Shown here: positions 238-8,290 of the stretch, one piece after another
How the letters are laid out: the number at the start of each line of letters is the position of its first letter
Position numbering within the stretch: the first letter of the stretch is position 1
Assembly: GCA_964565125.1 (NCBI GenBank)
Contig: CAZMCX010000016.1
Location: 3,196-11,485 of the forward strand
Source: an uncultured archaeon
GTDB taxonomy: Archaea > Iainarchaeota > Iainarchaeia > Iainarchaeales > 0-14-0-20-30-16
Length of the DNA: 8,290 nt
Reading direction: 5' to 3'
Position numbers and translations under genes: made by a program
The notes under the pieces: generated by a model
What the model saw: only the letters and a program-made list of their open reading frames with translations
What the model was told of the DNA's origin: nothing
Database searches by the model: none

Positions 238-990
238 GTGATAAATATGGATATTTCAAAGTTATTTGGGGAAAAGTTCAAAACCAGCCTAAATAATTTT
301 GAAAAAAATAGAAAGATCTATCACGAAGTCTTTGACAATCGACTTTACAACTCAATTTCTAAATTGTATTCTAAAAAAGTATTAGATACAATGGAGGGCC
401 TAATTTCAACAGGAAAAGAAGCAAATATTTTCTTGGCTCACAAAAACGATAAGAAGATTGTACTGAAAATATTCCGGAGAGAGACAACGTCTTTTTCTAA
501 ATTTTTAGAATATGTTGAAAGTGACCCCCGATTTCCAGTAATTAAAAAAAATAGAGCAATGATTTCTAATCTAATGGCACAAAAAGAATTTAGAAATTTA
601 AAATTGGCAGAAAGGTTTGGGTGTCTGGCCCCAAAATCAATCAAATTTATTGATAATATTGTAGTAATGGACTGCATTGGAGATCCGGAAGTAACATTAG
701 ATAAATTAAACAAGTCAGAAATTGAGGCAAATAAAGAAAAAATTTTTAAAGGTATTGAAGACAATATGAAAGCCCTAAAAAAAGGCAGACTTGTGCACGG
801 AGATTTGTCTGAGTATAATATTATATTCAGCAAAGATGTTTATTTTATAGATATGTCCCAGTCAACAACTTATGATAATCCACGGGCAAAAAAATTTTAT
901 TTAAAAGATTTACAAAACATAAAAAAGTTATTTGAAAGATATAAATACAACTCAGAATTCGTAGAAAAAGAGATAGAGGGACTAATATGA
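238..990 (+). CDS. rio1: RIO-type serine/threonine protein kinase, Rio1-like (no N-terminal wHTH)
   Basis: RIO signature motifs are present: P-loop-like STGKEANIF, Lys in VLKIFR, catalytic loop LVHGDLSEYNI and metal-binding FIDMSQS. The size (~247-250 aa) fits archaeal Rio1. The track start at 238 is GTG. The in-frame ATG at 247 is the more likely start (see promoter geometry). Confidence 0.88.
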   Translation: MINMDISKLFGEKFKTSLNNFEKNRKIYHEVFDNRLYNSISKLYSKKVLDTMEGLISTGKEANIFLAHKNDKKIVLKIFRRETTSFSKFLEYVESDPRFPVIKKNRAMISNLMAQKEFRNLKLAERFGCLAPKSIKFIDNIVVMDCIGDPEVTLDKLNKSEIEANKEKIFKGIEDNMKALKKGRLVHGDLSEYNIIFSKDVYFIDMSQSTTYDNPRAKKFYLKDLQNIKKLFERYKYNSEFVEKEIEGLI

Positions 991-1508
991 ATACTTACCT
1001 AAAAATACCTATGGACCGAGTTCCAATTCTAATTGGAAAAAAAGGAGAAACAAGAAAAAGATTAGAAGAAATTACGCTTGCAAAAATTGAAGTAGATAGC
1101 CAAACTGGGGATGTTAATCTAGAAAAAAAGGAAGCAAATCCATTAACTTTTTATAAACTAGAAAGTGTAATAAAAGCAATTGGAAGGGGTTTCTCTCCAG
1201 ACCATGCACTTTATTTATTAGATGATAATTATGTTCTGTGGTTAACAGACTTAACAGAATATGCAAAATCAGAAAAATCTAGGGAGACGAAGAGATCAAG
1301 AATCATAGGTACAAAAGGAGCAGTAAGGCAGTACATTGAAGATTCAACTTCTTGTTTTATTTCGGTGCAAGGAAAAACAGTTGCAATAATTGGAAAAGAA
1401 CCAACCTTGTCAATTGCAATCGATTCCGTCAGCCGGCTCTTACAAGGTTCTGAAATACAAGCAGTAAAAACATTTGTAAAAAAAGCGATATTAAAACAGA
1501 AGAGTTGA
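987..1508 (+). CDS. KH-domain RNA-binding protein, archaeal Dim2/Pno1-like (small-subunit ribosome biogenesis factor)
   Basis: There are two KH-like segments (VPILIGKKGETRKRLEE and RIIGTKGAVRQYIED, both with the IGxxG-type loop). The 173-aa size fits, and it sits directly downstream of rio1, a conserved archaeal pairing. Its ATG overlaps the rio1 stop (ATGA, 987-990). A GAGGG SD-like motif (976-980) lies 6 nt upstream. Confidence 0.7.
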   Translation: MNTYLKIPMDRVPILIGKKGETRKRLEEITLAKIEVDSQTGDVNLEKKEANPLTFYKLESVIKAIGRGFSPDHALYLLDDNYVLWLTDLTEYAKSEKSRETKRSRIIGTKGAVRQYIEDSTSCFISVQGKTVAIIGKEPTLSIAIDSVSRLLQGSEIQAVKTFVKKAILKQKS

Positions 1509-1512
1509 TATA

Positions 1513-4500
1513 ATGCCTAATGATAAATTTTCTGCAAGTTTTAAGGAAAGTTCTGTTGCCGAATTCTTTAAAAGAAACAGGCAAATGCTAGGTTTATACG
1601 GAAAAATTAGGTCTCTTACAACAGTAATTGCAGAATATGTTTGTAATTCATTAGATGCTTGTGAAGAAGCAGGCATACTCCCAGAAATTATAATAAAAAT
1701 ATCGCCTTTGGGCGAAGGGCACTATGAAGTCCATGTTATTGATAATGGCCCAGGAATTCCCAGAGACAAAATAGGTAAGGCTTTGGGTAAACTTTTAGCA
1801 GGAACTAAATTTCATAGACTAATACAATCACTAACTGCTGATGAATTAATGGTGTACAAACAAAATGATAAAATTCAACTAGAACCTATAGGAATATTCG
1901 TGGATAAATTTTTAGAATCGAATGAATACGAAAAAGATATTTCCAAATTAAATATTAGTGTTCCTTGTTTTGATCATATTAAATATCTATACACTTTCAG
2001 AAAAATTAAAGATGTTATAAGACATCCCAGAGAAAATGAGATTTATGAAATCAAGACAAAGTATAATAAAAAAATTAAAGTAACTGGATGTCACAGTGTA
2101 TTTTCTTTAGATAAAGGGGGTTTAATAAAAGAAACTGAAGCCAGAAACTTATCAAAAGGTGATTATGTTGCTTGCCCAAATAAACTTCCAGAAACAAAAA
2201 TAATACATAAAATTAATTGTTTAGATTACTTAGATGATAAAACTGTTGGAGAAAGATGGTTTTGCTATGGCATTGATAACAAAATAATTTCTAGTTTATT
2301 TAAAAAGGCAAAATTAACTAAAAAGAGAGACAAAACAGGCAGATTAAGAGAATATTTCCAACTCAAAGATAAAAACAAAACTGAATTATTAGTACTAAAA
2401 GAATCTATCCAATCTAATTATCTAAAAAACCATTTCTTGCCTGTTAATATAATACTAAGAATGGGTCTAAACAACAAAGTAAAAAACGGAACAATAAGAA
2501 GCTATATTCATGGAAATATTATAGATATACCTGTAGAATGGAATTTAACTCCAGAATTTGTCAGATTCTTAGGATTATATGTTGCAGAAGGCCATTCAGA
2601 CAAAAGACAAATAGGATTTACTTTTGGCAAACATGAACAGAAATATGTAACTGAAATTAAATCTTTTGCAAAATCAAAAGGCATACACACCACATTGGAA
2701 GAGAGAACTGCATCTTTAAGACTAAAAGTATTCGGGGGCATCATTTCTAATCTTATGAAAAATTGGTGCGGACATCTTGCTAAAAACAAAAAAATACCTG
2801 AATTTATTTTTTCTGTAGATTATAAATTAAGACAACATTTTTTGGATGCCCTATATCAGGGTGATGGGCACAACACAAAAAACAGAAATCAATTAATGTA
2901 TGTTACAGTAAGTGAAACGCTCGCACACCAATTGCAATATTTGTGGTTATTACAGGGTGTGATAACTGCTAAAAATGAAAAAATAAACAAAGGTATTGGA
3001 AAAACGCCATCAACAGCATATATTACCACAACTTATGGAAAAGATATAAATAAATCTAATGTCTTCTCCACAAATACGAAGTATAGAATACAGGAACACA
3101 AATTATTACCTATTCAAATACTTAATGAATTTAAACACAAAAAAGCAAGCCAAATTAATCCAACCATACACAGCATTTTTAGAGTTTTAAATTTAGGAGA
3201 TACAAAAATACAAATAAACAAATATATCACGATATTTGATAAATTATTTAAAGGTAAATCCATTACTAACATAAATAAACACAAATTTAAGCATTTATTA
3301 AATTTAGGATTCATTGACAACAATTATGAACCAACAAAACTGGTTGAATTATTAAAAAATAAATTACAAAAAATCAAAACAATAACTGAATCCAACCTAA
3401 GTTTACTAAGAATTATAGATATTAAAAAGATCACTACTGGTTTTAAGCAAGTTTATGACATTTCTGTTCCGGGGTATGAAAATTTTGTTGCAGGCAGTGG
3501 AGGAATTGCATGCCATAACACAAGAGGACAGCAAGGAATCGGAGCAAGTGGATGTATTCTATTAAGCCAAGTAACTACTGGAAAGCCTTCAAAGATAATC
3601 TCTGGAACTGGTGGCAAACCACTATATATGGAATTAGAAATAGATACTGCAAAAAACGAGCCAAAAATAAAGCTACAAAAAGAACTTGATTATGACTACA
3701 AAGGTATTGCAATAAAATCAGAATTCAAAGAAGTGAATTACCAAAACAGCAGCCAGAATGCTTTAGAATATCTTAAAAGAACTGCAATTGCAAACCCGCA
3801 TGCAACAATAAAATACACAGACCCTTTCAACAACACTTACATCTTTGAAAGGTCGAGTGGCTATATCCCTAAGACCCCAAAAGAAATAAAACCACATATA
3901 AAATGCATAACTGTGGATGGCCTAAAAACCCTTGCAAAAGATAATTCTAAAAAAACCATTGCTGGTTTATTCAAACAAGAATTTGACAGAGTTGGAGACA
4001 AGGTTATTAAAGACATAAATTCTCTTTTAGATTTCGATATTTCAAGAGTAACTATGGGCAAATCAACATGGGAAATGTTTGAAAAAGTTGTTAAAGCAAT
4101 TGATAAAACAAAAACTTTTGCCCCAAGGCTTGACACCTTGATCCCAATAGAAAAAAAATACTTAGAAGAATCACTAAGAAAAATCATAAAACCAGAATTC
4201 TTATCAGTTTTATCCAGAAAACCAACAGTATATCATGGTGGCTATCCAATACAAATAGAAGTTGCTATTGCTTATGGCGGAGATGCTGGCCAAGCCTTAG
4301 CAAACAACGAAAGAAAGTTAGAATTAATGCGTTTTGCCAATAGGGCGCCTTTGCTTTTTGACAACGGTGCCTGTGGAATCACAAAAGCAGTAAATTCAAT
4401 AGATTGGAAAAGGTATGGTTTAAGAGACATCGACAATCTTCCACTCACAATCCTAGTAAATCTCTCTTCTGTTCATATTCCATATATAAGCGCAGGAAAG

Positions 4501-4866
4501 CAAGCAATAGCGGAAGAGGAAGAAATTGTAGAAGAAATACGAAAAGCATTAATGACTGCAGCAAGATCTCTTGGTATACACCTATCCAAGAAAAAGCATT
4601 TAGAAACAAAAATGAAAAAAAGGGGAATATTTTTAAACTACGCCAAAGAAGTTGCTGAGGGTTTGCACCTACTAACCGACAGAAATAAAAAAGAGCTTAT
4701 AGACAAGCTAGAAGATATTATTACTAAGAAACTCCAAATAGAAGAGCAGAATGATAAAGAAAATCTTGAAGTTCCAGAAGAAAATCAGGAAGAAGTAGAA
4801 AAGGTTGGCAAGAAAAAAGATAAAATAACTGATTACTTCGAAGTGGATGGTGATCACGATGAGTGA
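1513..4866 (+). CDS. top6B: DNA topoisomerase VI subunit B (GHKL ATPase), intein-containing precursor (1117 aa; 553 aa after splicing)
   Basis: Bergerat-fold motifs: N box EYVCNSLDA, G1 box VIDNGPGIP and G2/ATP-lid TRGQQGIGASG. The last lies after the insert. The segment from 3520 onward is assigned as the H2TH and transducer region by family architecture (e.g. RFANRAPLLFD, VHIPYISAGKQAI); no motif was checked for H2TH. There is an acidic C-terminal tail. Confidence 0.92.
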   Translation: MPNDKFSASFKESSVAEFFKRNRQMLGLYGKIRSLTTVIAEYVCNSLDACEEAGILPEIIIKISPLGEGHYEVHVIDNGPGIPRDKIGKALGKLLAGTKFHRLIQSLTADELMVYKQNDKIQLEPIGIFVDKFLESNEYEKDISKLNISVPCFDHIKYLYTFRKIKDVIRHPRENEIYEIKTKYNKKIKVTGCHSVFSLDKGGLIKETEARNLSKGDYVACPNKLPETKIIHKINCLDYLDDKTVGERWFCYGIDNKIISSLFKKAKLTKKRDKTGRLREYFQLKDKNKTELLVLKESIQSNYLKNHFLPVNIILRMGLNNKVKNGTIRSYIHGNIIDIPVEWNLTPEFVRFLGLYVAEGHSDKRQIGFTFGKHEQKYVTEIKSFAKSKGIHTTLEERTASLRLKVFGGIISNLMKNWCGHLAKNKKIPEFIFSVDYKLRQHFLDALYQGDGHNTKNRNQLMYVTVSETLAHQLQYLWLLQGVITAKNEKINKGIGKTPSTAYITTTYGKDINKSNVFSTNTKYRIQEHKLLPIQILNEFKHKKASQINPTIHSIFRVLNLGDTKIQINKYITIFDKLFKGKSITNINKHKFKHLLNLGFIDNNYEPTKLVELLKNKLQKIKTITESNLSLLRIIDIKKITTGFKQVYDISVPGYENFVAGSGGIACHNTRGQQGIGASGCILLSQVTTGKPSKIISGTGGKPLYMELEIDTAKNEPKIKLQKELDYDYKGIAIKSEFKEVNYQNSSQNALEYLKRTAIANPHATIKYTDPFNNTYIFERSSGYIPKTPKEIKPHIKCITVDGLKTLAKDNSKKTIAGLFKQEFDRVGDKVIKDINSLLDFDISRVTMGKSTWEMFEKVVKAIDKTKTFAPRLDTLIPIEKKYLEESLRKIIKPEFLSVLSRKPTVYHGGYPIQIEVAIAYGGDAGQALANNERKLELMRFANRAPLLFDNGACGITKAVNSIDWKRYGLRDIDNLPLTILVNLSSVHIPYISAGKQAIAEEEEIVEEIRKALMTAARSLGIHLSKKKHLETKMKKRGIFLNYAKEVAEGLHLLTDRNKKELIDKLEDIITKKLQIEEQNDKENLEVPEENQEEVEKVGKKKDKITDYFEVDGDHDE
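1828..3519 (+). mobile_element. Intein (564 aa) with LAGLIDADG homing-endonuclease domain, inserted in Top6B between ...KFHRLIQ and TRGQQGIG...
   Basis: Block A is SLTADELMV (Ser1). Block B is KVTGCHSVF (TxxH). The LAGLIDADG motifs are FLGLYVAEGH (2566-2595) and FLDALYQGDGH (2839-2871). Blocks F/G are VYDISVPGYENFVAGSGGIACHN, ending in His-Asn and followed by Thr+1 (3520). Excision rejoins the conserved Top6B FHxxxQ-[S/T]RGQQGIG motif. Confidence 0.88.
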
Positions 4867-7555
4867 TACTATAAAAAAAATTGAAAAAATGGGCACAGAA
4901 ATTGCTAAACAAATTGATGACGGAAAAGAGCCTAATTATTCTATTCCGGTAAGGTCTTTGGGAAATGTTTATTATGATAAAGTTTCTAAAACAATTAAAC
5001 TTGGAGACAAAGAAAGTAAAAGGCATTTTTTAAATATTGGGCATGCAAGAAAATTTATGCAAACAATTCTTGTTGCCTCAGAAGTAAAAAATCTAATAAA
5101 GCATGGGGCAACAACCTCAATTAGGGATCTGTACTATGCCCTTAAGCACACTATTGGGGGCACAAAAGAGAACGTTTTTGAAAATCAGGCAGAATCTATT
5201 TGCCCAGACGAAACAGTCTTAGTAAGAATAGCAGGCATAATGAAAATCACAACAGTTGATGAAGTCGTAAACTATGTTAAAAAGCAGGGAAAATTAGAGA
5301 TTAATGACACTAAACATAAGGTATATTCTACAAAAGATATTTCTGTTGTAGGTTTTGACAAAAACCAAAAAATAAAAGAAAATCCAGTAAATTGTATAAT
5401 TATTCACCCTCCAAATAAAGTTAAAAAAATAACTACATCATCAGGCAGGATAGTAAAGACAACATTAGATCATAATCTTTTTACTATAAAAAACGGCGAG
5501 ATAATAAATATTACTACAAAAAATTTAAAACAAGGGGATTATATAGCAATTGCCCGAAAAATAAAAATAAAAGAAAATAAAAAAGAGATTAATTTAGTAA
5601 CTAATATAATTAATAACGCCCCCCCGGAAGTAATAAAAAAAATATATCTTAAGGGAGATAAAAAAGTAATATTTGATATTTTAGACAGCATCCCCAGAAT
5701 TAAAATAAAAAAATATCTTGAACAAAATAAACTGAAACTAAAACATAATTATGCTATGGGTAATTGGAAACATTGGCAAACAATACCTCTATCTTTGATC
5801 AAGTTTACTAATTTAGATCTAAAAAACAATTACAAAAAATTGTTTCTCTTTGCAAAAGGTGGCAAGCATAAATACAAAACTATAATTAAAAAAGATAAAA
5901 ACTTAGGATTAATCTTTGGTAGTTTACTTAGTGAGGGCTGTTTAAATATTGTAACAAGAAAAAAGAGGGAATATAGAATATCTATATGTAATAAATCTCA
6001 AAAATTTTTAAATAAATTTATTAATTCTTTGGAAAATACTTTGGGCAATTGTTCTTCAACAAAGCCCTTACCTAAAAAAGATGGCACATATAATTTAAAT
6101 GTAGGTTATGATTTACTTGCAAAAATACTAGAATATGGATTAGGCATGAATTTTTATAAATCTTGGGACAAAGAAATTCCTTATTGCTTATTAGATGCCC
6201 CAATAAATTGTGTTGATTCTTTTTTAGATAGTTTTAGACAGGGGGATGGAAGCAGGGGTCCAAGGTATGAAATAAGATACCACACTACAAGTGTTAACTT
6301 GGTAAATGGTATTTCTTTTTTATTACTTAGAAAGGGGCTGTTTTCAAATATTTACGAATACAAAAAAAGGTCATTAAATCATCATGTTGCTTATGAAATA
6401 AGAGTAGGAAATAGAGATTATTCCTGTGAATTAAGCCAAATTACTGAAAAAAATAAGTTCTCGACCAAAAATACCAAACATTCTAGTGACAGAATTCCGG
6501 GTTTAGAAAACATTATTAACCTTGCAAGAAAAGAGAAAAAAATACCACAGGAAGTTTATAAAAAAATAGACTTTTACCACTTTAAAAATAGTAGGGCAAT
6601 TAGTAGAATTATGTTAAAAAAAATATTAAAATATTTCAAAGACTCAAAATACAAGAAATTATTAGAGCTTAACCTTAACTCTAATATTTATTGGGATACA
6701 GTAAAATCCATAGAAACTATAAAAACACCCAAATACACTATGGATTTTAATGTAAAACCAATTCAAAACTTTATTGCTGGAAGAGGGCATCTGTTATTAC
6801 ATAACTCAGATCCTCTGATAGAAGACTTAGAGGCTTCTCTTGGGCTATTAAGAGAAGAACTTCACCTGACTGCATCTACAAAAGGAATAATTGCTGGGAA
6901 GATGACAGTAAAAGACGGAAAGGATACTATTGATTTGTCAAGAATGGGTTCTGGCGGTTGGGGAGTTCCATCCAATGTAGAACCTGAAAAAATTGAGATA
7001 AAAGATTTAGATGCAGAGTACATATTATTTATCGAAAAAGATGCTGTATGGAAAAGGTTTAACGAGGACCAATTCTGGAAAAAGCACAGGTGTATTATAA
7101 TCACTGGAAAAGGCCAGCCCGCAAGAGCAGAAAGAAGGCTTGTTCAGAGGTTAAACAAGGAATATAATCTTCCTGTTTATGCCCTGATGGATGCAGATCC
7201 GTGGGGAATGTATATTTATTCAGTAATAAAGCAAGGATCCATTTCTCTAAGTTATTCTGAAGAGAAATTGGCAACCCCGGATACAAAATATCTTGGACTA
7301 ACAATCTCTGATGTTGACAAGTTCAAGATCCCAAGTAATGTAACAATCAAGCTTAATATGCAAGACATAAAGAGAATAAAAGAAATGAAGGAATATCCTT
7401 GGTTTAAGAAGGACAAAGGCTGGCAGAAAGAGTTTGATTTGATGAAACAGAGAAACTACAAGCTAGAATTGGAAGCCCTAAGTAGAAAAGGGATTAGGTT
7501 CATAACTGAAGAGTATTTGCCAAGAAAGATAGAAACCAAAGACTTTTTAGGATAA
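4847..7555 (+). CDS. top6A: DNA topoisomerase VI subunit A (Spo11 family), intein-containing precursor (902 aa; 367 aa after splicing)
   Basis: The 5Y-CAP motif SIRDLYYALK carries the catalytic Tyr (Y97, 5135-5137). The spliced form reads FENQAESI-SDPLIEDLEASLGLLREELHL. Toprim motifs are LFIEKDAV (E730) and MDADPWG (DxD). The alternative start ATG 4859 is preceded by the SD-like GGTGATC (4849-4855) and may be the true start. It overlaps the top6B stop as ATGAGTGA. Confidence 0.92.
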   Translation: MVITMSDTIKKIEKMGTEIAKQIDDGKEPNYSIPVRSLGNVYYDKVSKTIKLGDKESKRHFLNIGHARKFMQTILVASEVKNLIKHGATTSIRDLYYALKHTIGGTKENVFENQAESICPDETVLVRIAGIMKITTVDEVVNYVKKQGKLEINDTKHKVYSTKDISVVGFDKNQKIKENPVNCIIIHPPNKVKKITTSSGRIVKTTLDHNLFTIKNGEIINITTKNLKQGDYIAIARKIKIKENKKEINLVTNIINNAPPEVIKKIYLKGDKKVIFDILDSIPRIKIKKYLEQNKLKLKHNYAMGNWKHWQTIPLSLIKFTNLDLKNNYKKLFLFAKGGKHKYKTIIKKDKNLGLIFGSLLSEGCLNIVTRKKREYRISICNKSQKFLNKFINSLENTLGNCSSTKPLPKKDGTYNLNVGYDLLAKILEYGLGMNFYKSWDKEIPYCLLDAPINCVDSFLDSFRQGDGSRGPRYEIRYHTTSVNLVNGISFLLLRKGLFSNIYEYKKRSLNHHVAYEIRVGNRDYSCELSQITEKNKFSTKNTKHSSDRIPGLENIINLARKEKKIPQEVYKKIDFYHFKNSRAISRIMLKKILKYFKDSKYKKLLELNLNSNIYWDTVKSIETIKTPKYTMDFNVKPIQNFIAGRGHLLLHNSDPLIEDLEASLGLLREELHLTASTKGIIAGKMTVKDGKDTIDLSRMGSGGWGVPSNVEPEKIEIKDLDAEYILFIEKDAVWKRFNEDQFWKKHRCIIITGKGQPARAERRLVQRLNKEYNLPVYALMDADPWGMYIYSVIKQGSISLSYSEEKLATPDTKYLGLTISDVDKFKIPSNVTIKLNMQDIKRIKEMKEYPWFKKDKGWQKEFDLMKQRNYKLELEALSRKGIRFITEEYLPRKIETKDFLG
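5201..6805 (+). mobile_element. Intein (535 aa) with LAGLIDADG homing-endonuclease domain, inserted in Top6A between ...NQAESI and SDPLIEDLE...
   Basis: Block A is CPDETVLV (Cys1). Block B is VKTTLDHNLF (TxxH). The LAGLIDADG motifs are LGLIFGSLLSEGC (5903-5941) and FLDSFRQGDGS (6221-6253). Blocks F/G are TMDFNVKPIQNFIAGRGHLLLHN, ending in His-Asn and followed by Ser+1 (6806). Confidence 0.88.
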
Positions 7556-7647: not shown

Positions 7648-8085
7648 TTATTTCTTTGTATATCTTTTGATTTTTAAACAGTCATTTTCCAAAAAATTTC
7701 CAAAAATTTCTATTTTTTTCTTTGCGGTTTTAAGTATTACCTTGGGGTCTATATTTAGTTTCCCCCAAGTATGTCTTCCATCCCAACCCCAAACGATTCC
7801 TTTGGCTTCAGCCCAAACAATTAAGGAAGTACACATTGGACACGGTATTTGGGTAGAATAAATCCAACAATTCTTTAGATGGTAATTCTTTTGTTTTCTA
7901 CAGATCTTTCTTACGGCATTCATTTCACCATGTGCTGTCGGATCTTTGTATTCTTCAACTGTAGAGATTGCTTTAGAAATAATTTTATCGCCCTTTACAA
8001 TAAAACAACCAGTCCTCTGTCCATCTGATTTTTTCAATGTATAAGCAATAAGTTTTCTCATTATTTTTTCGTTAGGGTGTTTCAT
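7648..8085 (-). CDS. CMP/dCMP-type (CDA superfamily) zinc-dependent nucleoside/base deaminase, COG0590-like
   Basis: The zinc and catalytic motifs are HGE (TAHGEMNAV) and PCPMC (PCxxC), with typical spacing. The 145-aa size fits free-standing CDA-fold deaminases. Substrate cannot be assigned from sequence alone. Confidence 0.8.
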   Translation of the reverse strand: MKHPNEKIMRKLIAYTLKKSDGQRTGCFIVKGDKIISKAISTVEEYKDPTAHGEMNAVRKICRKQKNYHLKNCWIYSTQIPCPMCTSLIVWAEAKGIVWGWDGRHTWGKLNIDPKVILKTAKKKIEIFGNFLENDCLKIKRYTKK

Positions 8086-8114: not shown

Positions 8115-8174
8115 TCTAACTATTATCTGCCTTACCCCAATTAGATATTTTTATAATTTCTTCCTGCCTAAAAT

Positions 8175-8290
8175 ATATTAGGTGTTATTTATGGATCAAG
8201 AAAGTAATTTGCTTAAACGCAAATTATTTCAGGCCCCATAAAATATTAGGTGTTATTTATGGATCAAGAAAGTAATTTGCTTAAACGCAA
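8175..8290 (+). repeat. Tandem direct duplication, period 68 bp. Copies 8175-8222 and 8243-8290 are identical over 48 nt; the second is truncated by the window end.
   Basis: ATATTAGGTGTTATTTATGGATCAAGAAAGTAATTTGCTTAAACGCAA occurs twice, read directly. The flanks upstream of each copy are degenerately similar (AATTTCTTCCTGCCTAAAAT vs TATTTCAGGCCCCATAAAAT). Each copy contains an ATG (8191, 8259). Confidence 0.85.

Follow-up and report, generated by a model that had tools for sequence, protein, structure and literature searches.

Both topoisomerase VI subunit genes of an uncultured Iainarchaeota archaeon carry full-length homing-endonuclease inteins

A small uncultured archaeon of the Iainarchaeota (DPANN) carries adjacent genes for the two subunits of topoisomerase VI, and each gene is interrupted in frame by a long insert. 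We sought to establish what these inserts are, where exactly they begin and end, and whether they are elements that simply have to be spliced out or a device that controls the assembly of the enzyme. All coordinates refer to the window, which is the whole stretch of 8,290 nucleotides that was analyzed, and all features described lie on its forward (+) strand. A slash within a sequence marks a splice junction or an insertion point.

The topoisomerase VI genes and their neighborhood

The top6B precursor gene (1513..4866) encodes 1,117 aa with intein-interrupted GHKL ATPase and transducer domains, and the top6A precursor gene (4847..7555) encodes 902 aa from the ATG at 4847 or 898 aa from the ATG at 4859. 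Both extents, with 902 aa for Top6A, are those given in the initial annotation of this DNA. The last 20 nt or 8 nt of top6B also belong to top6A, depending on which of the two ATG codons is used. Public gene calls place the Top6A start at M5 (nt 4859; P0001), and an exact-sequence look-up of public records therefore found the 898-aa form but not the 902-aa form.

Profile HMMs assign both products to topoisomerase VI (type IIB). The Top6B precursor matches TIGR01052 (565 bits, E = 7e-170) and PF09239, and the Top6A precursor matches NF003333 (515 bits, E = 7e-155), PF04406, PF20768, and PF21180. The equivalog HMMs for both subunits exceed their cut-offs, and alignments to PDB sequences agree with the assignment: the spliced form of Top6B aligns with 2q2e_B over residues 9-489 (E = 3e-94), and that of Top6A aligns with 2zbk_A (E = 1e-86). 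Top6B contains EYVCNSLDA, DNGPGI, and TRGQQGIG, which are the N-box, G1, and G2 boxes of the GHKL ATPase, as well as the transducer domain. Top6A contains RDLYY of the 5Y-CAP domain with the catalytic tyrosine, and FIEKDAV and LMDADPWG with the Toprim Glu and DxD. The catalytic-tyrosine motif IRDLYYALK (5120..5146) aligns to TIRDLYYRGKH of 2zbk_A.

Upstream of top6B lie the genes for a RIO-type kinase (238..990; PF01163, E = 7e-43) and a KH-domain protein (Dim2/Pno1/KRR1-like; 987..1508; PF00013 and PF21800). The RIO-type kinase gene is also found upstream of top6B in two related loci (L002 and L003), and the neighborhood of the KH-domain gene is kept in relatives. Searches of the window with Rfam and ARAGORN yielded neither RNA genes nor structured RNAs.

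Within DPANN, gyrase is reported to occur in only five named lineages, i.e., Micrarchaeota, Woesearchaeota, Pacearchaeota, UBA583, and sporadically Altiarchaeota, and to be lacking in all other phyla (PMC9348778). Because Iainarchaeota are not listed among these exceptions, it is plausible that topoisomerase VI is the main type II enzyme in this archaeon, as the initial annotation had stated for many archaea.

Identity and boundaries of the two inteins

The Top6B intein (1828..3519; 564 aa) begins with Ser1 and ends in HN, with Thr as the +1 residue at 3520. It separates Q105 from TRGQQGIG at the ATP lid/G2 box and directly precedes the GxxGxG/ATP-lid motif of the GHKL ATPase. The precursor matches Intein_splicing PF14890 (E = 3e-21), LAGLIDADG_3 PF14528, and TIGR01445, and the model of the intein C-terminal region, TIGR01443, is matched by Top6B only, not by Top6A. 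Removal of the intein leaves a 553-aa protein that aligns without a gap over the junction to 2q2e_B and 2zbk_B, and the junction (KFHRLIQ/TRGQQGIG) is identical to that of the intein-free allele in the relative L005, so that the coordinates and product size first proposed for this intein hold. The intein starts with SLTADE, where S1 is the nucleophilic residue of block A, and its block B, KIKVTGCHSVFSL (2071..2109), contains the TxxH motif (VTGCH) and aligns to block B of PI-PkoII. The first LAGLIDADG motif, FVRFLGLYVAEGHS (2557..2598), contains the putative catalytic Glu254 and aligns to LLGYYVSEG of PI-PkoII, and the second, LRQHFLDALYQGDGH (2827..2871), contains the putative catalytic Asp346 and aligns to FLEGYFIGDG. 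Among 17 homologues, the first motif (YVAEG) keeps E254 in at least 90% and G255 throughout, and G345-D346-G347 of the second (YQGDG) are all invariant. Blocks F and G, QVYDISVPGYENFVAG SGGIACHN (3448..3519), are matched by TIGR01443, and the C-terminus, which reads ...ENFVAGSGGIACHN/T with the terminal His-Asn followed by the +1 Thr, aligns to the ends of PI-PkoII and TFIIB mini-inteins.

The Top6A intein (5195..6805; 537 aa) also begins with Ser1 and ends in HN, with Ser as the +1 residue at 6806. It splits the 5Y-CAP domain after E116 and before SDPLIEDLE, 20 residues downstream of the catalytic-tyrosine motif RDLYY, and the precursor matches PF14890 (E = 6e-22), PF14528, and TIGR01445. Block B, RIVKTTLDHNLFTI (5447..5488), aligns to that of PI-PkoII and contains T90 and H93 (TTLDH); in the aligned homologues, H93 never varies and T90 is kept in at least 90%. 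The first LAGLIDADG motif, LGLIFGSLLSEGCL (5903..5944), contains LLSEG with the putative catalytic Glu247, and S246-E247-G248 are invariant in 23 sequences. The second motif, CVDSFLDSFRQGDGS (6209..6253), contains RQGDG with the putative catalytic Asp351 and aligns to the second motif of PI-PkoII; all aligned homologues share D351-G352-S353. Blocks F and G, YTMDFNVKPIQNFIAG RGHLLLHN (6734..6805), align to the C-termini of PI-PkoII and the TFIIB mini-intein, and the terminus reads ...QNFIAGRGHLLLHN/S with His-Asn followed by the +1 Ser. No variation is seen among the aligned homologues at D517, F526, G529, H536, and N537. The insertion site of this intein is shared by at least 24 relatives in the databases. 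One homologue, P0007, terminates in PN rather than HN.

The initial annotation had placed the start of the Top6A intein at Cys119 (nt 5201), which gave a product of 367 aa. We moved this start two codons upstream to Ser117 (nt 5195), which makes the spliced Top6A 365 aa long (361 aa from M5), with the junction FENQAE/SDPLIEDLE. The Ser117 column is invariant in the aligned Top6A-intein homologues, whereas the column of the supposed C1 can hold C, T, S, D, or H. Position 4 of TIGR01445 falls on Top6A residue 120, S1-I2 of the intein (start SICPDE) aligns with S1-I2 of the crystallized PI-PkoII, and excision from C119 forces a two-residue gap against the Top6A sequences in the PDB. Furthermore, E/SDP is read in 57 of 57 intein-free Top6A relatives. 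"Non-canonical" Top6A inteins with Thr1, Asp1, or His1 are an artefact of the wrong boundary. With the corrected start, the two inteins together span 3,303 nt, or 39.8% of the window, instead of the 3,297 nt counted before. Of the splicing features assigned at first sight, blocks A, B, F, and G, the terminal HN, and the +1 residues all stand, and only the nucleophile of the Top6A intein changes, from Cys to Ser. Neither intein therefore has a catalytic Cys, the pairs being S1/T+1 in Top6B and S1/S+1 in Top6A.

Predicted structures extend these assignments. The AF2 model of the Top6B intein (pLDDT 86.6) has PI-PkoII (2cw7) as its best Foldseek match (TM 0.63, E = 2e-30), and so does that of the Top6A intein (pLDDT 90, pTM 0.90; TM 0.75, E = 1e-34). 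For both, the TliVMA and PI-PfuI inteins follow after PI-PkoII. The Hint fold matches the full-length inteins 2cw7, 7qss, and 1dq3 and mini-inteins such as 5o9i (rmsd 1.5 A over 121 columns). The endonuclease is predicted to have the pseudo-dimeric alpha-beta-beta-alpha-beta-beta-alpha fold, for which Foldseek matches I-DmoI (e.g., 2vs7 and 4ut0; TM to target 0.6-0.7) as well as the intein endonucleases. Judged from sequence and predicted fold, both inserts are full-length class-1 Hint inteins with a LAGLIDADG homing endonuclease of the monomeric two-motif type. The two LAGLIDADG motifs proposed for each insert are borne out by the PF14528 matches and the conserved Glu and Asp, and the adjacent, overlapping top6B and top6A genes indeed both hold homing-endonuclease inteins. 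Recent copying of one intein from the other is ruled out by their identity of 23%.

Distribution, selection, and transfer

The closest species-level relative, L005, is intein-free in both genes, with exteins that are 92% and 96% identical to those of the window. Empty sites of the L005 type read ...CTAATACAA/ACAAGAGGACAG... and ...CAGTCAGAA/TCAGACCCTCTT..., and at the Top6A site (FEDQSE/SDPLIEDLE) the residues at the insertion point match the predicted splice product. Among 51 species-level relatives in which both genes are complete, 42 have no intein, seven have one or more inteins in Top6B only, one has an intein in Top6A only, and one has inteins in both; the loci surveyed come from metagenome-assembled genomes, and an absence in a few of them could mean that a minor allele was assembled. 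All four kinds of presence and absence occur: neither intein in L005, the Top6B intein only in L004, the Top6A intein only in L002 and L063, and both in the window, L064, and L003. Top6B itself has two inteins in L003 and L058, and topoisomerase VI of L003 has three in total. The invasion of both subunits is an ordinary pattern of selfish elements that is not unique to this locus, as it recurs in L064 and L003.

With the whole Top6A precursor as query, a word-index search of proteins returned intein-containing relatives only, and the intein-free alleles were retrieved by searching genome contigs with the spliced extein. We examined 57 intein-free Top6A and 46 intein-free Top6B sequences. The +1 position of Top6B is Met, Gln, or Leu in 36 of these 46 relatives. 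Of the checks suggested with the initial annotation, those on sequence came out in its favor: the spliced forms align cleanly to the solved intein-free subunits (2q2e_B, 2zbk_B, and 2zbk_A), both precursors match Hint and LAGLIDADG profile HMMs, and many relatives are empty at both sites, L005 being the nearest.

We compared the divergence of the inteins with that of their host genes using NG86, by which dS is a crude measure in a 31% GC genome. The Top6B inteins of the window and L004 are 88.4% identical at the nucleotide level (dS 0.46), whereas the exteins on either side share 72-77% (dS of 1.7 or more, or saturated), and the intein has therefore been shared more recently than the host gene. 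This pattern points to recent horizontal homing of the Top6B intein. In a check for a co-conversion tract beside it, the 35 codons upstream came out somewhat closer (83% nucleotide identity, dS 0.97) than the distal extein; they also form the most conserved region. For the Top6A intein dS is saturated, so that recent mobility is shown for the Top6B intein only, and the evidence for mobility of the Top6A intein is its sporadic distribution. Omega is 0.135 for the whole Top6B intein and 0.095 for the whole Top6A intein, with 0.16 and 0.09 for the respective endonuclease cores; these low values across element and core mean that each element is under purifying selection as a whole. For the endonuclease, such selection would equally fit a role that benefits the host.

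Selfish elements and alternative readings

We consider it probable, at roughly 86%, that the locus holds two independent, distantly related selfish inteins of the PI-PkoII type, one in each subunit gene, with a normal enzyme after splicing. In each, a LAGLIDADG homing endonuclease and accessory helical domains accompany the class-1 Hint splicing domain. The whole precursor would be translated first, after which the intein would excise itself autocatalytically and presumably constitutively. Ser1 would undergo an N-O acyl shift, trans-esterification to the +1 residue (Thr in Top6B, Ser in Top6A) would follow, and the terminal Asn would cyclize before a final O-N shift. The resulting 553-aa Top6B and 365-aa (or 361-aa) Top6A would assemble into a normal A2B2 topoisomerase VI. 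The freed inteins would act as homing endonucleases that cleave intein-free alleles at the same conserved sites, where repair copies them in, and homing into empty alleles would explain their patchy, horizontally mixed distribution. They would reside in catalytic motifs because such motifs are conserved targets from which imprecise loss is lethal, and not for the regulation of the enzyme.

Both inteins interrupt catalytic motifs, and it is reasonable to infer that both must go before the enzyme is active. The initial annotation went on to propose, as speculation, a two-key post-translational gate on chromosome decatenation. In a fuller form of this idea, both inteins would have been co-opted as conditional protein-splicing switches: active topoisomerase VI would form only under an environmental or cellular signal that lets both precursors splice, and decatenation and replication would be tied to that signal. 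Conditional splicing is documented for archaeal replication and repair inteins such as RadA in Pyrococcus and Thermococcus (PMC4513877, PMC5790916, and PMC11409957), the enzyme is probably essential with gyrase reported absent from most DPANN phyla (PMC9348778), and both inteins are under purifying selection. Against this, neither intein is present in 42 of the 51 related species, and the closest relative lacks both, so that the conservation of the inteins that would mark a conditional switch is not observed; a conserved regulatory device would not be so dispensable, and the proposed gate is unsupported. Co-occurrence in one of 51 species is indistinguishable from independence, with counts that are very small, and the recent horizontal transfer of the Top6B intein is the signature of a selfish element. 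With Ser1 and Ser/Thr+1 in both inteins, the known cysteine-based redox or disulfide switches cannot apply, and no sensor is marked in the sequence. Ser1 inteins with Thr+1 or Ser+1 can be slow or condition-dependent. We regard co-option as very unlikely, and likewise an AND gate on topoisomerase VI assembly set, for instance, by temperature, pH, substrate DNA, or the partner subunit; if it were true, selfish elements would serve the cell of a genome-reduced DPANN archaeon as a checkpoint on chromosome decatenation through its only type II topoisomerase. The patchy distribution favors two independent selfish elements that merely have to splice.

It is also improbable that the inteins are immobile relics that splice but have dead endonucleases and vertical inheritance, awaiting deletion at a late stage of the homing cycle. 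The Top6A intein is no closer to its nearest relative than the host gene is (dS ~1.7, saturated), the PN terminus of P0007 hints at decay in that lineage, and in Haloquadratum top6B inteins the endonuclease region has visibly decayed, all of which would fit such relics. However, the catalytic acidic residues of both LAGLIDADG motifs, Glu and Asp, show little or no variation among 23 and 17 homologues, omega of the endonuclease cores (0.09-0.16) is not above that of the splicing domains, the Top6B intein is far younger than the divergence of the host gene from L004, and a full four-domain architecture like that of PI-PkoII is predicted with high confidence. As the metagenomic contig that holds the window is short (~9.6 kb), one might suspect a chimeric or mis-joined contig, or lineage-specific domains of topoisomerase VI that are never excised. 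This is effectively refuted by a separately recorded public contig that is 99.6% identical over 8,187 nt with the same structure, and by dozens of homologous precursors from unrelated samples with identical insertion sites; in addition, the inserts are in frame with exact intein termini at both ends and are precisely missing from most orthologues.

Among known inteins, PI-PkoII (PI-TkoII, the Pol-2 intein of Thermococcus kodakarensis; 2cw7) is the best match of both elements in sequence and fold. It shares the Ser1 start (SILPEE versus SICPDE and SLTADE), the terminal HN, the multi-domain layout, and a nearly equal length (537 aa), but its host is DNA polymerase B, its identity to them is only ~20%, and the target DNA specificity must differ. 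A haloarchaeal "top6B" intein allele was published by Soucy et al. (2014; PMC4071816), and Novikova et al. (2016; PMC4760082) list Top6B as one of the 15 archaeal proteins richest in inteins. The haloarchaeal intein occupies the same site (...SRFHAREQ/SLTPDQ... versus ...TKFHRLIQ/SLTADE... in the window), following the shared pattern ...[KR]FH..xQ/SLT[AP]D... before [ST]RGQQGIG. It also has two LAGLIDADG motifs and a similar length (~569 versus 564 aa), and the Halorhabdus tiamatea top6B intein is 31% identical to that of the window from end to end (1-564 versus 1-569, E = 2e-102). In contrast, the window intein ends in HN/T and the haloarchaeal one in KN/S, they diverge by ~70%, and the host phylum is Iainarchaeota/DPANN, not Halobacteria. 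Closer relatives (35-48% identity), which share the site and are homologous over the full length, are found in Top6B of Nanoarchaeota and Woesearchaeota.

For Top6A, public proteins such as P0004 (Diapherotrites MAG, GCA_040755695.1) have an intein at the same 5Y-CAP site with the same domain set, and P0020 is labeled "DNA topoisomerase VI subunit A/intein/homing endonuclease" by JGI. These database inteins share the site pattern E/S[IV]xP[DN]E ... HN/S[DN] and a length of 532-546 aa, with 37 to 76% identity over the whole precursor and annotations that are automatic only; other Top6A inteins are located elsewhere, at the Toprim Glu and DxD motifs. In the searchable literature, Top6A inteins are mentioned only as sequences "removed manually" (PMC9348778), no paper describing the 5Y-CAP intein or its insertion site was found, and nothing specific was found on inteins in Iainarchaeota. 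Haloarchaeal MCM, with four intein sites (PMC10643990), likewise has several independent inteins at catalytic or nucleotide-binding motifs of one essential machine that are sporadic in relatives, but the inteins of the window are split over two subunits of one heterotetramer and not placed in one polypeptide. The RadA inteins (PMC4513877, PMC5790916, and PMC11409957) similarly interrupt the core ATPase domain of a protein of archaeal DNA metabolism, where an intein could in principle serve as a switch, whereas the inteins of the window are unrelated in sequence and dispensable in most relatives, and conditionality is unsupported here.

The locus by itself raises no new biological question, and its value lies mainly in annotation: the two genes are best annotated as coding for precursors that contain inteins and mature to 553 aa and 365 aa, and extein alignments gain two spurious residues if the Ser117 correction is not made. 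It adds a member from Iainarchaeota to the known top6B intein allele and documents the 5Y-CAP intein site of Top6A, which public databases already contain with automatic annotation. Two full-length Ser1 inteins without catalytic Cys from a mesophilic, low-GC archaeon might interest protein engineers. Together with its relatives, the locus provides a natural series for the study of homing dynamics in DPANN, with empty, single, double, and triple topoisomerase VI operons in one phylum.

Two inteins in the topoisomerase VI genes

The window contains four closely packed genes on the + strand: a RIO-type kinase gene (238..990) and a KH-domain Dim2/Pno1-like gene (987..1508), both identified by profile search, and the genes for the topoisomerase VI subunit precursors, Top6B (1513..4866, a 1117-aa ORF; TIGR01052, 565 bits, E 7e-170; PF09239) and Top6A (4847..7555, a 902-aa ORF; NF003333, 515 bits, E 7e-155; PF04406, PF20768 and PF21180). 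A cytidine/dCMP-deaminase-family gene was found by profile search on the - strand (7648..8085). The start of the Top6A ORF overlaps the Top6B stop, with two candidate starts at ATG 4847 (20-nt overlap) and ATG 4859 (ATGAGTGA, 8-nt overlap). In public gene calls Top6A starts from the second ATG (P0001, 898 aa), and the longer form would also be possible, since the closest species-level relative (L005) has MVITMSD as well.

In both ORFs the host-protein match comes in two parts, N-terminal and C-terminal, between which lie matches to Intein_splicing (PF14890, E about 1e-21), LAGLIDADG_3 (PF14528) and a TIGR intein N-terminal model; a TIGR intein C-terminal model also matches the Top6B insert. 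These intein and LAGLIDADG matches in each insert confirm the proposal of the initial annotation that both are full-length homing-endonuclease inteins. Its coordinates for the Top6B intein (1828..3519) are right: the element is 564 aa long, starts with SLTADE, ends with ACHN and is followed by Thr, and the spliced 553-aa Top6B aligns without gaps over KFHRLIQ/TRGQQGIG (slashes mark splice junctions) with the Top6B structures of M. mazei and S. shibatae. The Top6A intein had been started at C119 (nt 5201), which is two codons late, and five lines of evidence concur on this. Among 24 homologous Top6A precursors, the column of C119 holds C, T, S, D or H, while the Ser two residues before it is invariant and followed by Ile or Val. 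Position 4 of TIGR01445 falls on residue 120 of the Top6A ORF, and the model of the intein-containing RpoA'' enters both inserts at one and the same model position, corresponding to Top6B residue 106 and Top6A residue 117. The S1-I2-x-P-D/E-E start of the Top6A intein aligns with S1-I2-L-P-E-E of the crystallised PI-PkoII intein. Finally, the splice product from C119 aligns with the two solved Top6A sequences only if a gap of two residues is opened, and the E/SDP junction is found in every intein-free Top6A relative. Together these place the Top6A intein at 5195..6805 (537 aa, from S1 to LLLHN, with a +1 Ser) and a mature Top6A of 365 aa (361 from M5) with the junction FENQAE/SDPLIEDLE. The two inteins occupy 3303 nt, 39.8% of the window.

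Both inteins have the full class-1 residue set. The Top6B intein has Ser1, VTGCH as block B (TxxH), the block F Asp, a C-terminal HN and a +1 Thr, and the Top6A intein has Ser1, TTLDH, the block F Asp, HN and a +1 Ser. The LAGLIDADG acidic residues (E254 and D346 in the Top6B intein, E247 and D351 in the Top6A intein) are invariant or nearly so in family alignments. AlphaFold models built on these alignments are confident for the Top6A (pLDDT 90.0, pTM 0.90) and Top6B (pLDDT 86.6, pTM 0.83) inteins, and both have PI-PkoII, an intein endonuclease of 537 aa, as their best PDB match (2cw7; E 1e-34 and TM 0.75 for Top6A, E 2e-30 and TM 0.63 for Top6B). The TliVMA and PI-PfuI inteins follow, and then come mini-inteins, which match the Hint part, and I-DmoI, which matches the endonuclease part. 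With just 23% identity between them, the two inteins are independent elements of one broad class.

The penultimate His is variable in these families, since it gives way to Pro in one Top6A-intein homologue (P0007, with a final PN) and to Lys in the published haloarchaeal top6B inteins (final KN), whereas both window inteins end in HN. The endonuclease region has degenerated in the Haloquadratum top6B inteins. The AT content of the window inteins is markedly higher than that of their exteins (GC 0.28 vs 0.35 for Top6B, 0.27 vs 0.36 for Top6A), which is compatible with a foreign origin or a weaker compositional constraint.

Insertion sites and known alleles

In Top6B the intein separates Q105 from the TRGQQGIG motif, in the G2/ATP-lid region of the GHKL fold; the N-box (EYVCNSLDA) and the G1 box (DNGPGI) are upstream of it. 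The insertion point in Top6A is in the 5Y-CAP domain, immediately before the conserved SDPxIxDhE motif and 20 residues past the catalytic-tyrosine motif RDLYY. It is reasonable to expect that the unspliced precursors are inactive.

Three Top6B intein sites were found in the surveyed loci: the N-box (HEYxTN/SVT...LHN/SLDACE), the ATP lid, as in the window, and the G2 box (RGQQGIGA/CMK...CHN/SG). Inteins at the two other sites occur in L003 (3093-8000), L058 (2086-6975), L007, L012, L013, L042, L048 and L064, and L003 and L058 carry both in one Top6B gene (1635 and about 1630 aa). The 5Y-CAP site of Top6A is occupied in 24 protein clusters from Diapherotrites, Aenigmatarchaeota and Altiarchaeales. 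Further Top6A sites lie at the Toprim Glu motif (VL/CLP...HN/CVEK and AIE/CLD...HN/CGGMF), at the DxD motif (IF/SVD...HN/TDGD and LTD/SVPP...HN/SDPYG) and beyond, including one after KSGS, and Top6A is thus a multi-site intein host. Public proteins of 750-950 aa with inteins at such other sites are P0025, P0056-P0058, P0064, P0066, P0068, P0069, P0075, P0111, P0117, P0137, P0165 and P0171. A statement that Top6A hosts inteins at multiple sites was not found in the searched literature.

Top6B is listed, with 15 inteins, among the 15 archaeal proteins that most often bear inteins (PMC4760082), and a top6B allele is known from Halobacteria (PMC4071816). The haloarchaeal intein occupies exactly the same site as that of the window (...SRFHAREQ/SLTPDQ...; supplementary alignments of PMC4071816), and the two align end to end (31% identity, E 2e-102), so the window Top6B intein is a new, distant member of the published allele. 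Top6B inteins of Nanoarchaeota and Woesearchaeota are closer members than the haloarchaeal ones. We found Top6A inteins mentioned in a single paper, whose authors "removed manually" the inteins in their Top6A/Top6B data sets (PMC9348778); a paper describing the Top6A site of the window was not found in the searchable literature, and such proteins already appear in public records under the label "DNA topoisomerase VI subunit A/intein/homing endonuclease".

Neighbourhood of the operon

The RIO kinase and KH genes form a same-strand pair upstream of the top6B-top6A genes, which they adjoin in the window (238-1508) and L003 (612-3062); in L002 (3271-4654) the pair is two genes away. The eIF-2beta, DUF424 and eIF-1A genes precede the pair in L003. 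Translation and ribosome-biogenesis genes beside topoisomerase VI are a conserved neighbourhood in the phylum.

A separately recorded public contig (L001; ENA ERZ27293347 k141_192190) matches the window at 99.6% identity across 8187 nt. An intergenic direct duplication with 68-nt spacing (CCTAAAATATATTAGGTGTTATTTATGGATCA...) lies downstream of the deaminase gene (window 8167-8290, L001 8088-8187). Its second copy extends further in the window than in L001, showing that the repeat content here differs among strains. The duplication includes the ATG opening a small hydrophobic ORF in L001, where the next gene, just past the window (L001 8403-9587), encodes a 394-aa PD-(D/E)XK nuclease-family protein (PF12705).

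Distribution, homing and the regulatory reading

We scanned the spliced Top6A against one genome per GTDB species and obtained 63 loci, those with a given taxon being mostly Candidatus Iainarchaeum or Diapherotrites (phylum Iainarchaeota, DPANN). In L005 (Ca. ainarchaeum sp. STB_43), whose exteins are 96% and 92% identical to those of the window, both subunits are intein-free, and its sequences match the predicted splice products, being identical over the Top6B junction and at the Top6A insertion point. L004 (Top6A 90% identical) has the same-site Top6B intein (88% aa identity) and an intein-free Top6A, while L002 has the Top6A intein (74%) and an intein-free Top6B. L063 has an intein in Top6A only, L064 has inteins in both subunits, and L003 (GCA_040755695.1) has three, two in Top6B and one in Top6A. 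Among the 51 loci with both genes complete, 42 have no intein, seven have Top6B intein(s) only, one has a Top6A intein only and one has inteins in both subunits; there is no sign of linkage between the two inteins across these loci, where the counts are very small.

Nei-Gojobori estimates show that the Top6B intein differs little between the window and L004 (nt identity 88.4%, dS 0.46, omega 0.135), whereas the N-extein (77%, dS about 2.8) and the C-extein (72%, dS saturated) differ greatly; in a genome this AT-rich dS is only approximate, but this contrast is large. The divergence of the host genes is thus much older than the sharing of the Top6B intein, which is the pattern expected of homing between lineages. 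For the Top6A intein, compared with L002, dS is about 1.7 (saturated) and omega is 0.095. Together with the low omega of the endonuclease cores (0.16 in Top6B, 0.09 in Top6A), these values indicate purifying selection on the whole elements, endonucleases included.

At the +1 site (window 3520-3522 equivalent), 46 intein-free Iainarchaeota Top6B genes have Met (28), Gln (5), Leu (2) or Ala (1), and only 10 have Ser or Thr, among them the closest relatives L005 (T) and L002 (S). The majority of relatives would therefore be unable to splice the Top6B intein unless the +1 codon is co-converted, a constraint that perhaps limits its spread. The +1 Ser of the Top6A site is present in 57/57 intein-free sequences.

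The initial annotation had also suggested that the inteins jointly gate topoisomerase VI, which would be active only when both splice. Such an idea is legitimate, since conditional protein splicing is real and has been studied in archaeal RadA (PMC4513877, PMC5790916, PMC11409957) and other proteins. However, the inteins are missing from most relatives, the nearest included, they occur independently of one another, that of Top6B has spread horizontally in recent times, and neither has a catalytic cysteine, which excludes redox or disulfide control on sequence grounds. The proposed gate finds no support in these data, and we consider it very improbable. The accompanying view that the locus is probably essential is plausible from the literature, which names topoisomerase VI as the one archaeal enzyme with a known ability to relax positive supercoils (PMC2643942) and reports gyrase as found in only five named DPANN lineages, this phylum not among them, and as missing in the other six DPANN phyla (PMC9348778). 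Yet it is their very essentiality that turns such genes into safe havens for selfish inteins.

Apart from the one wrong boundary, the locus had been well described: the topoisomerase VI operon of this member of Iainarchaeota carries two independent homing inteins of the PI-PkoII type, which are real but ordinary. The Top6B intein belongs to a published allele, and the Top6A intein occupies a site that is known in databases and apparently undescribed.
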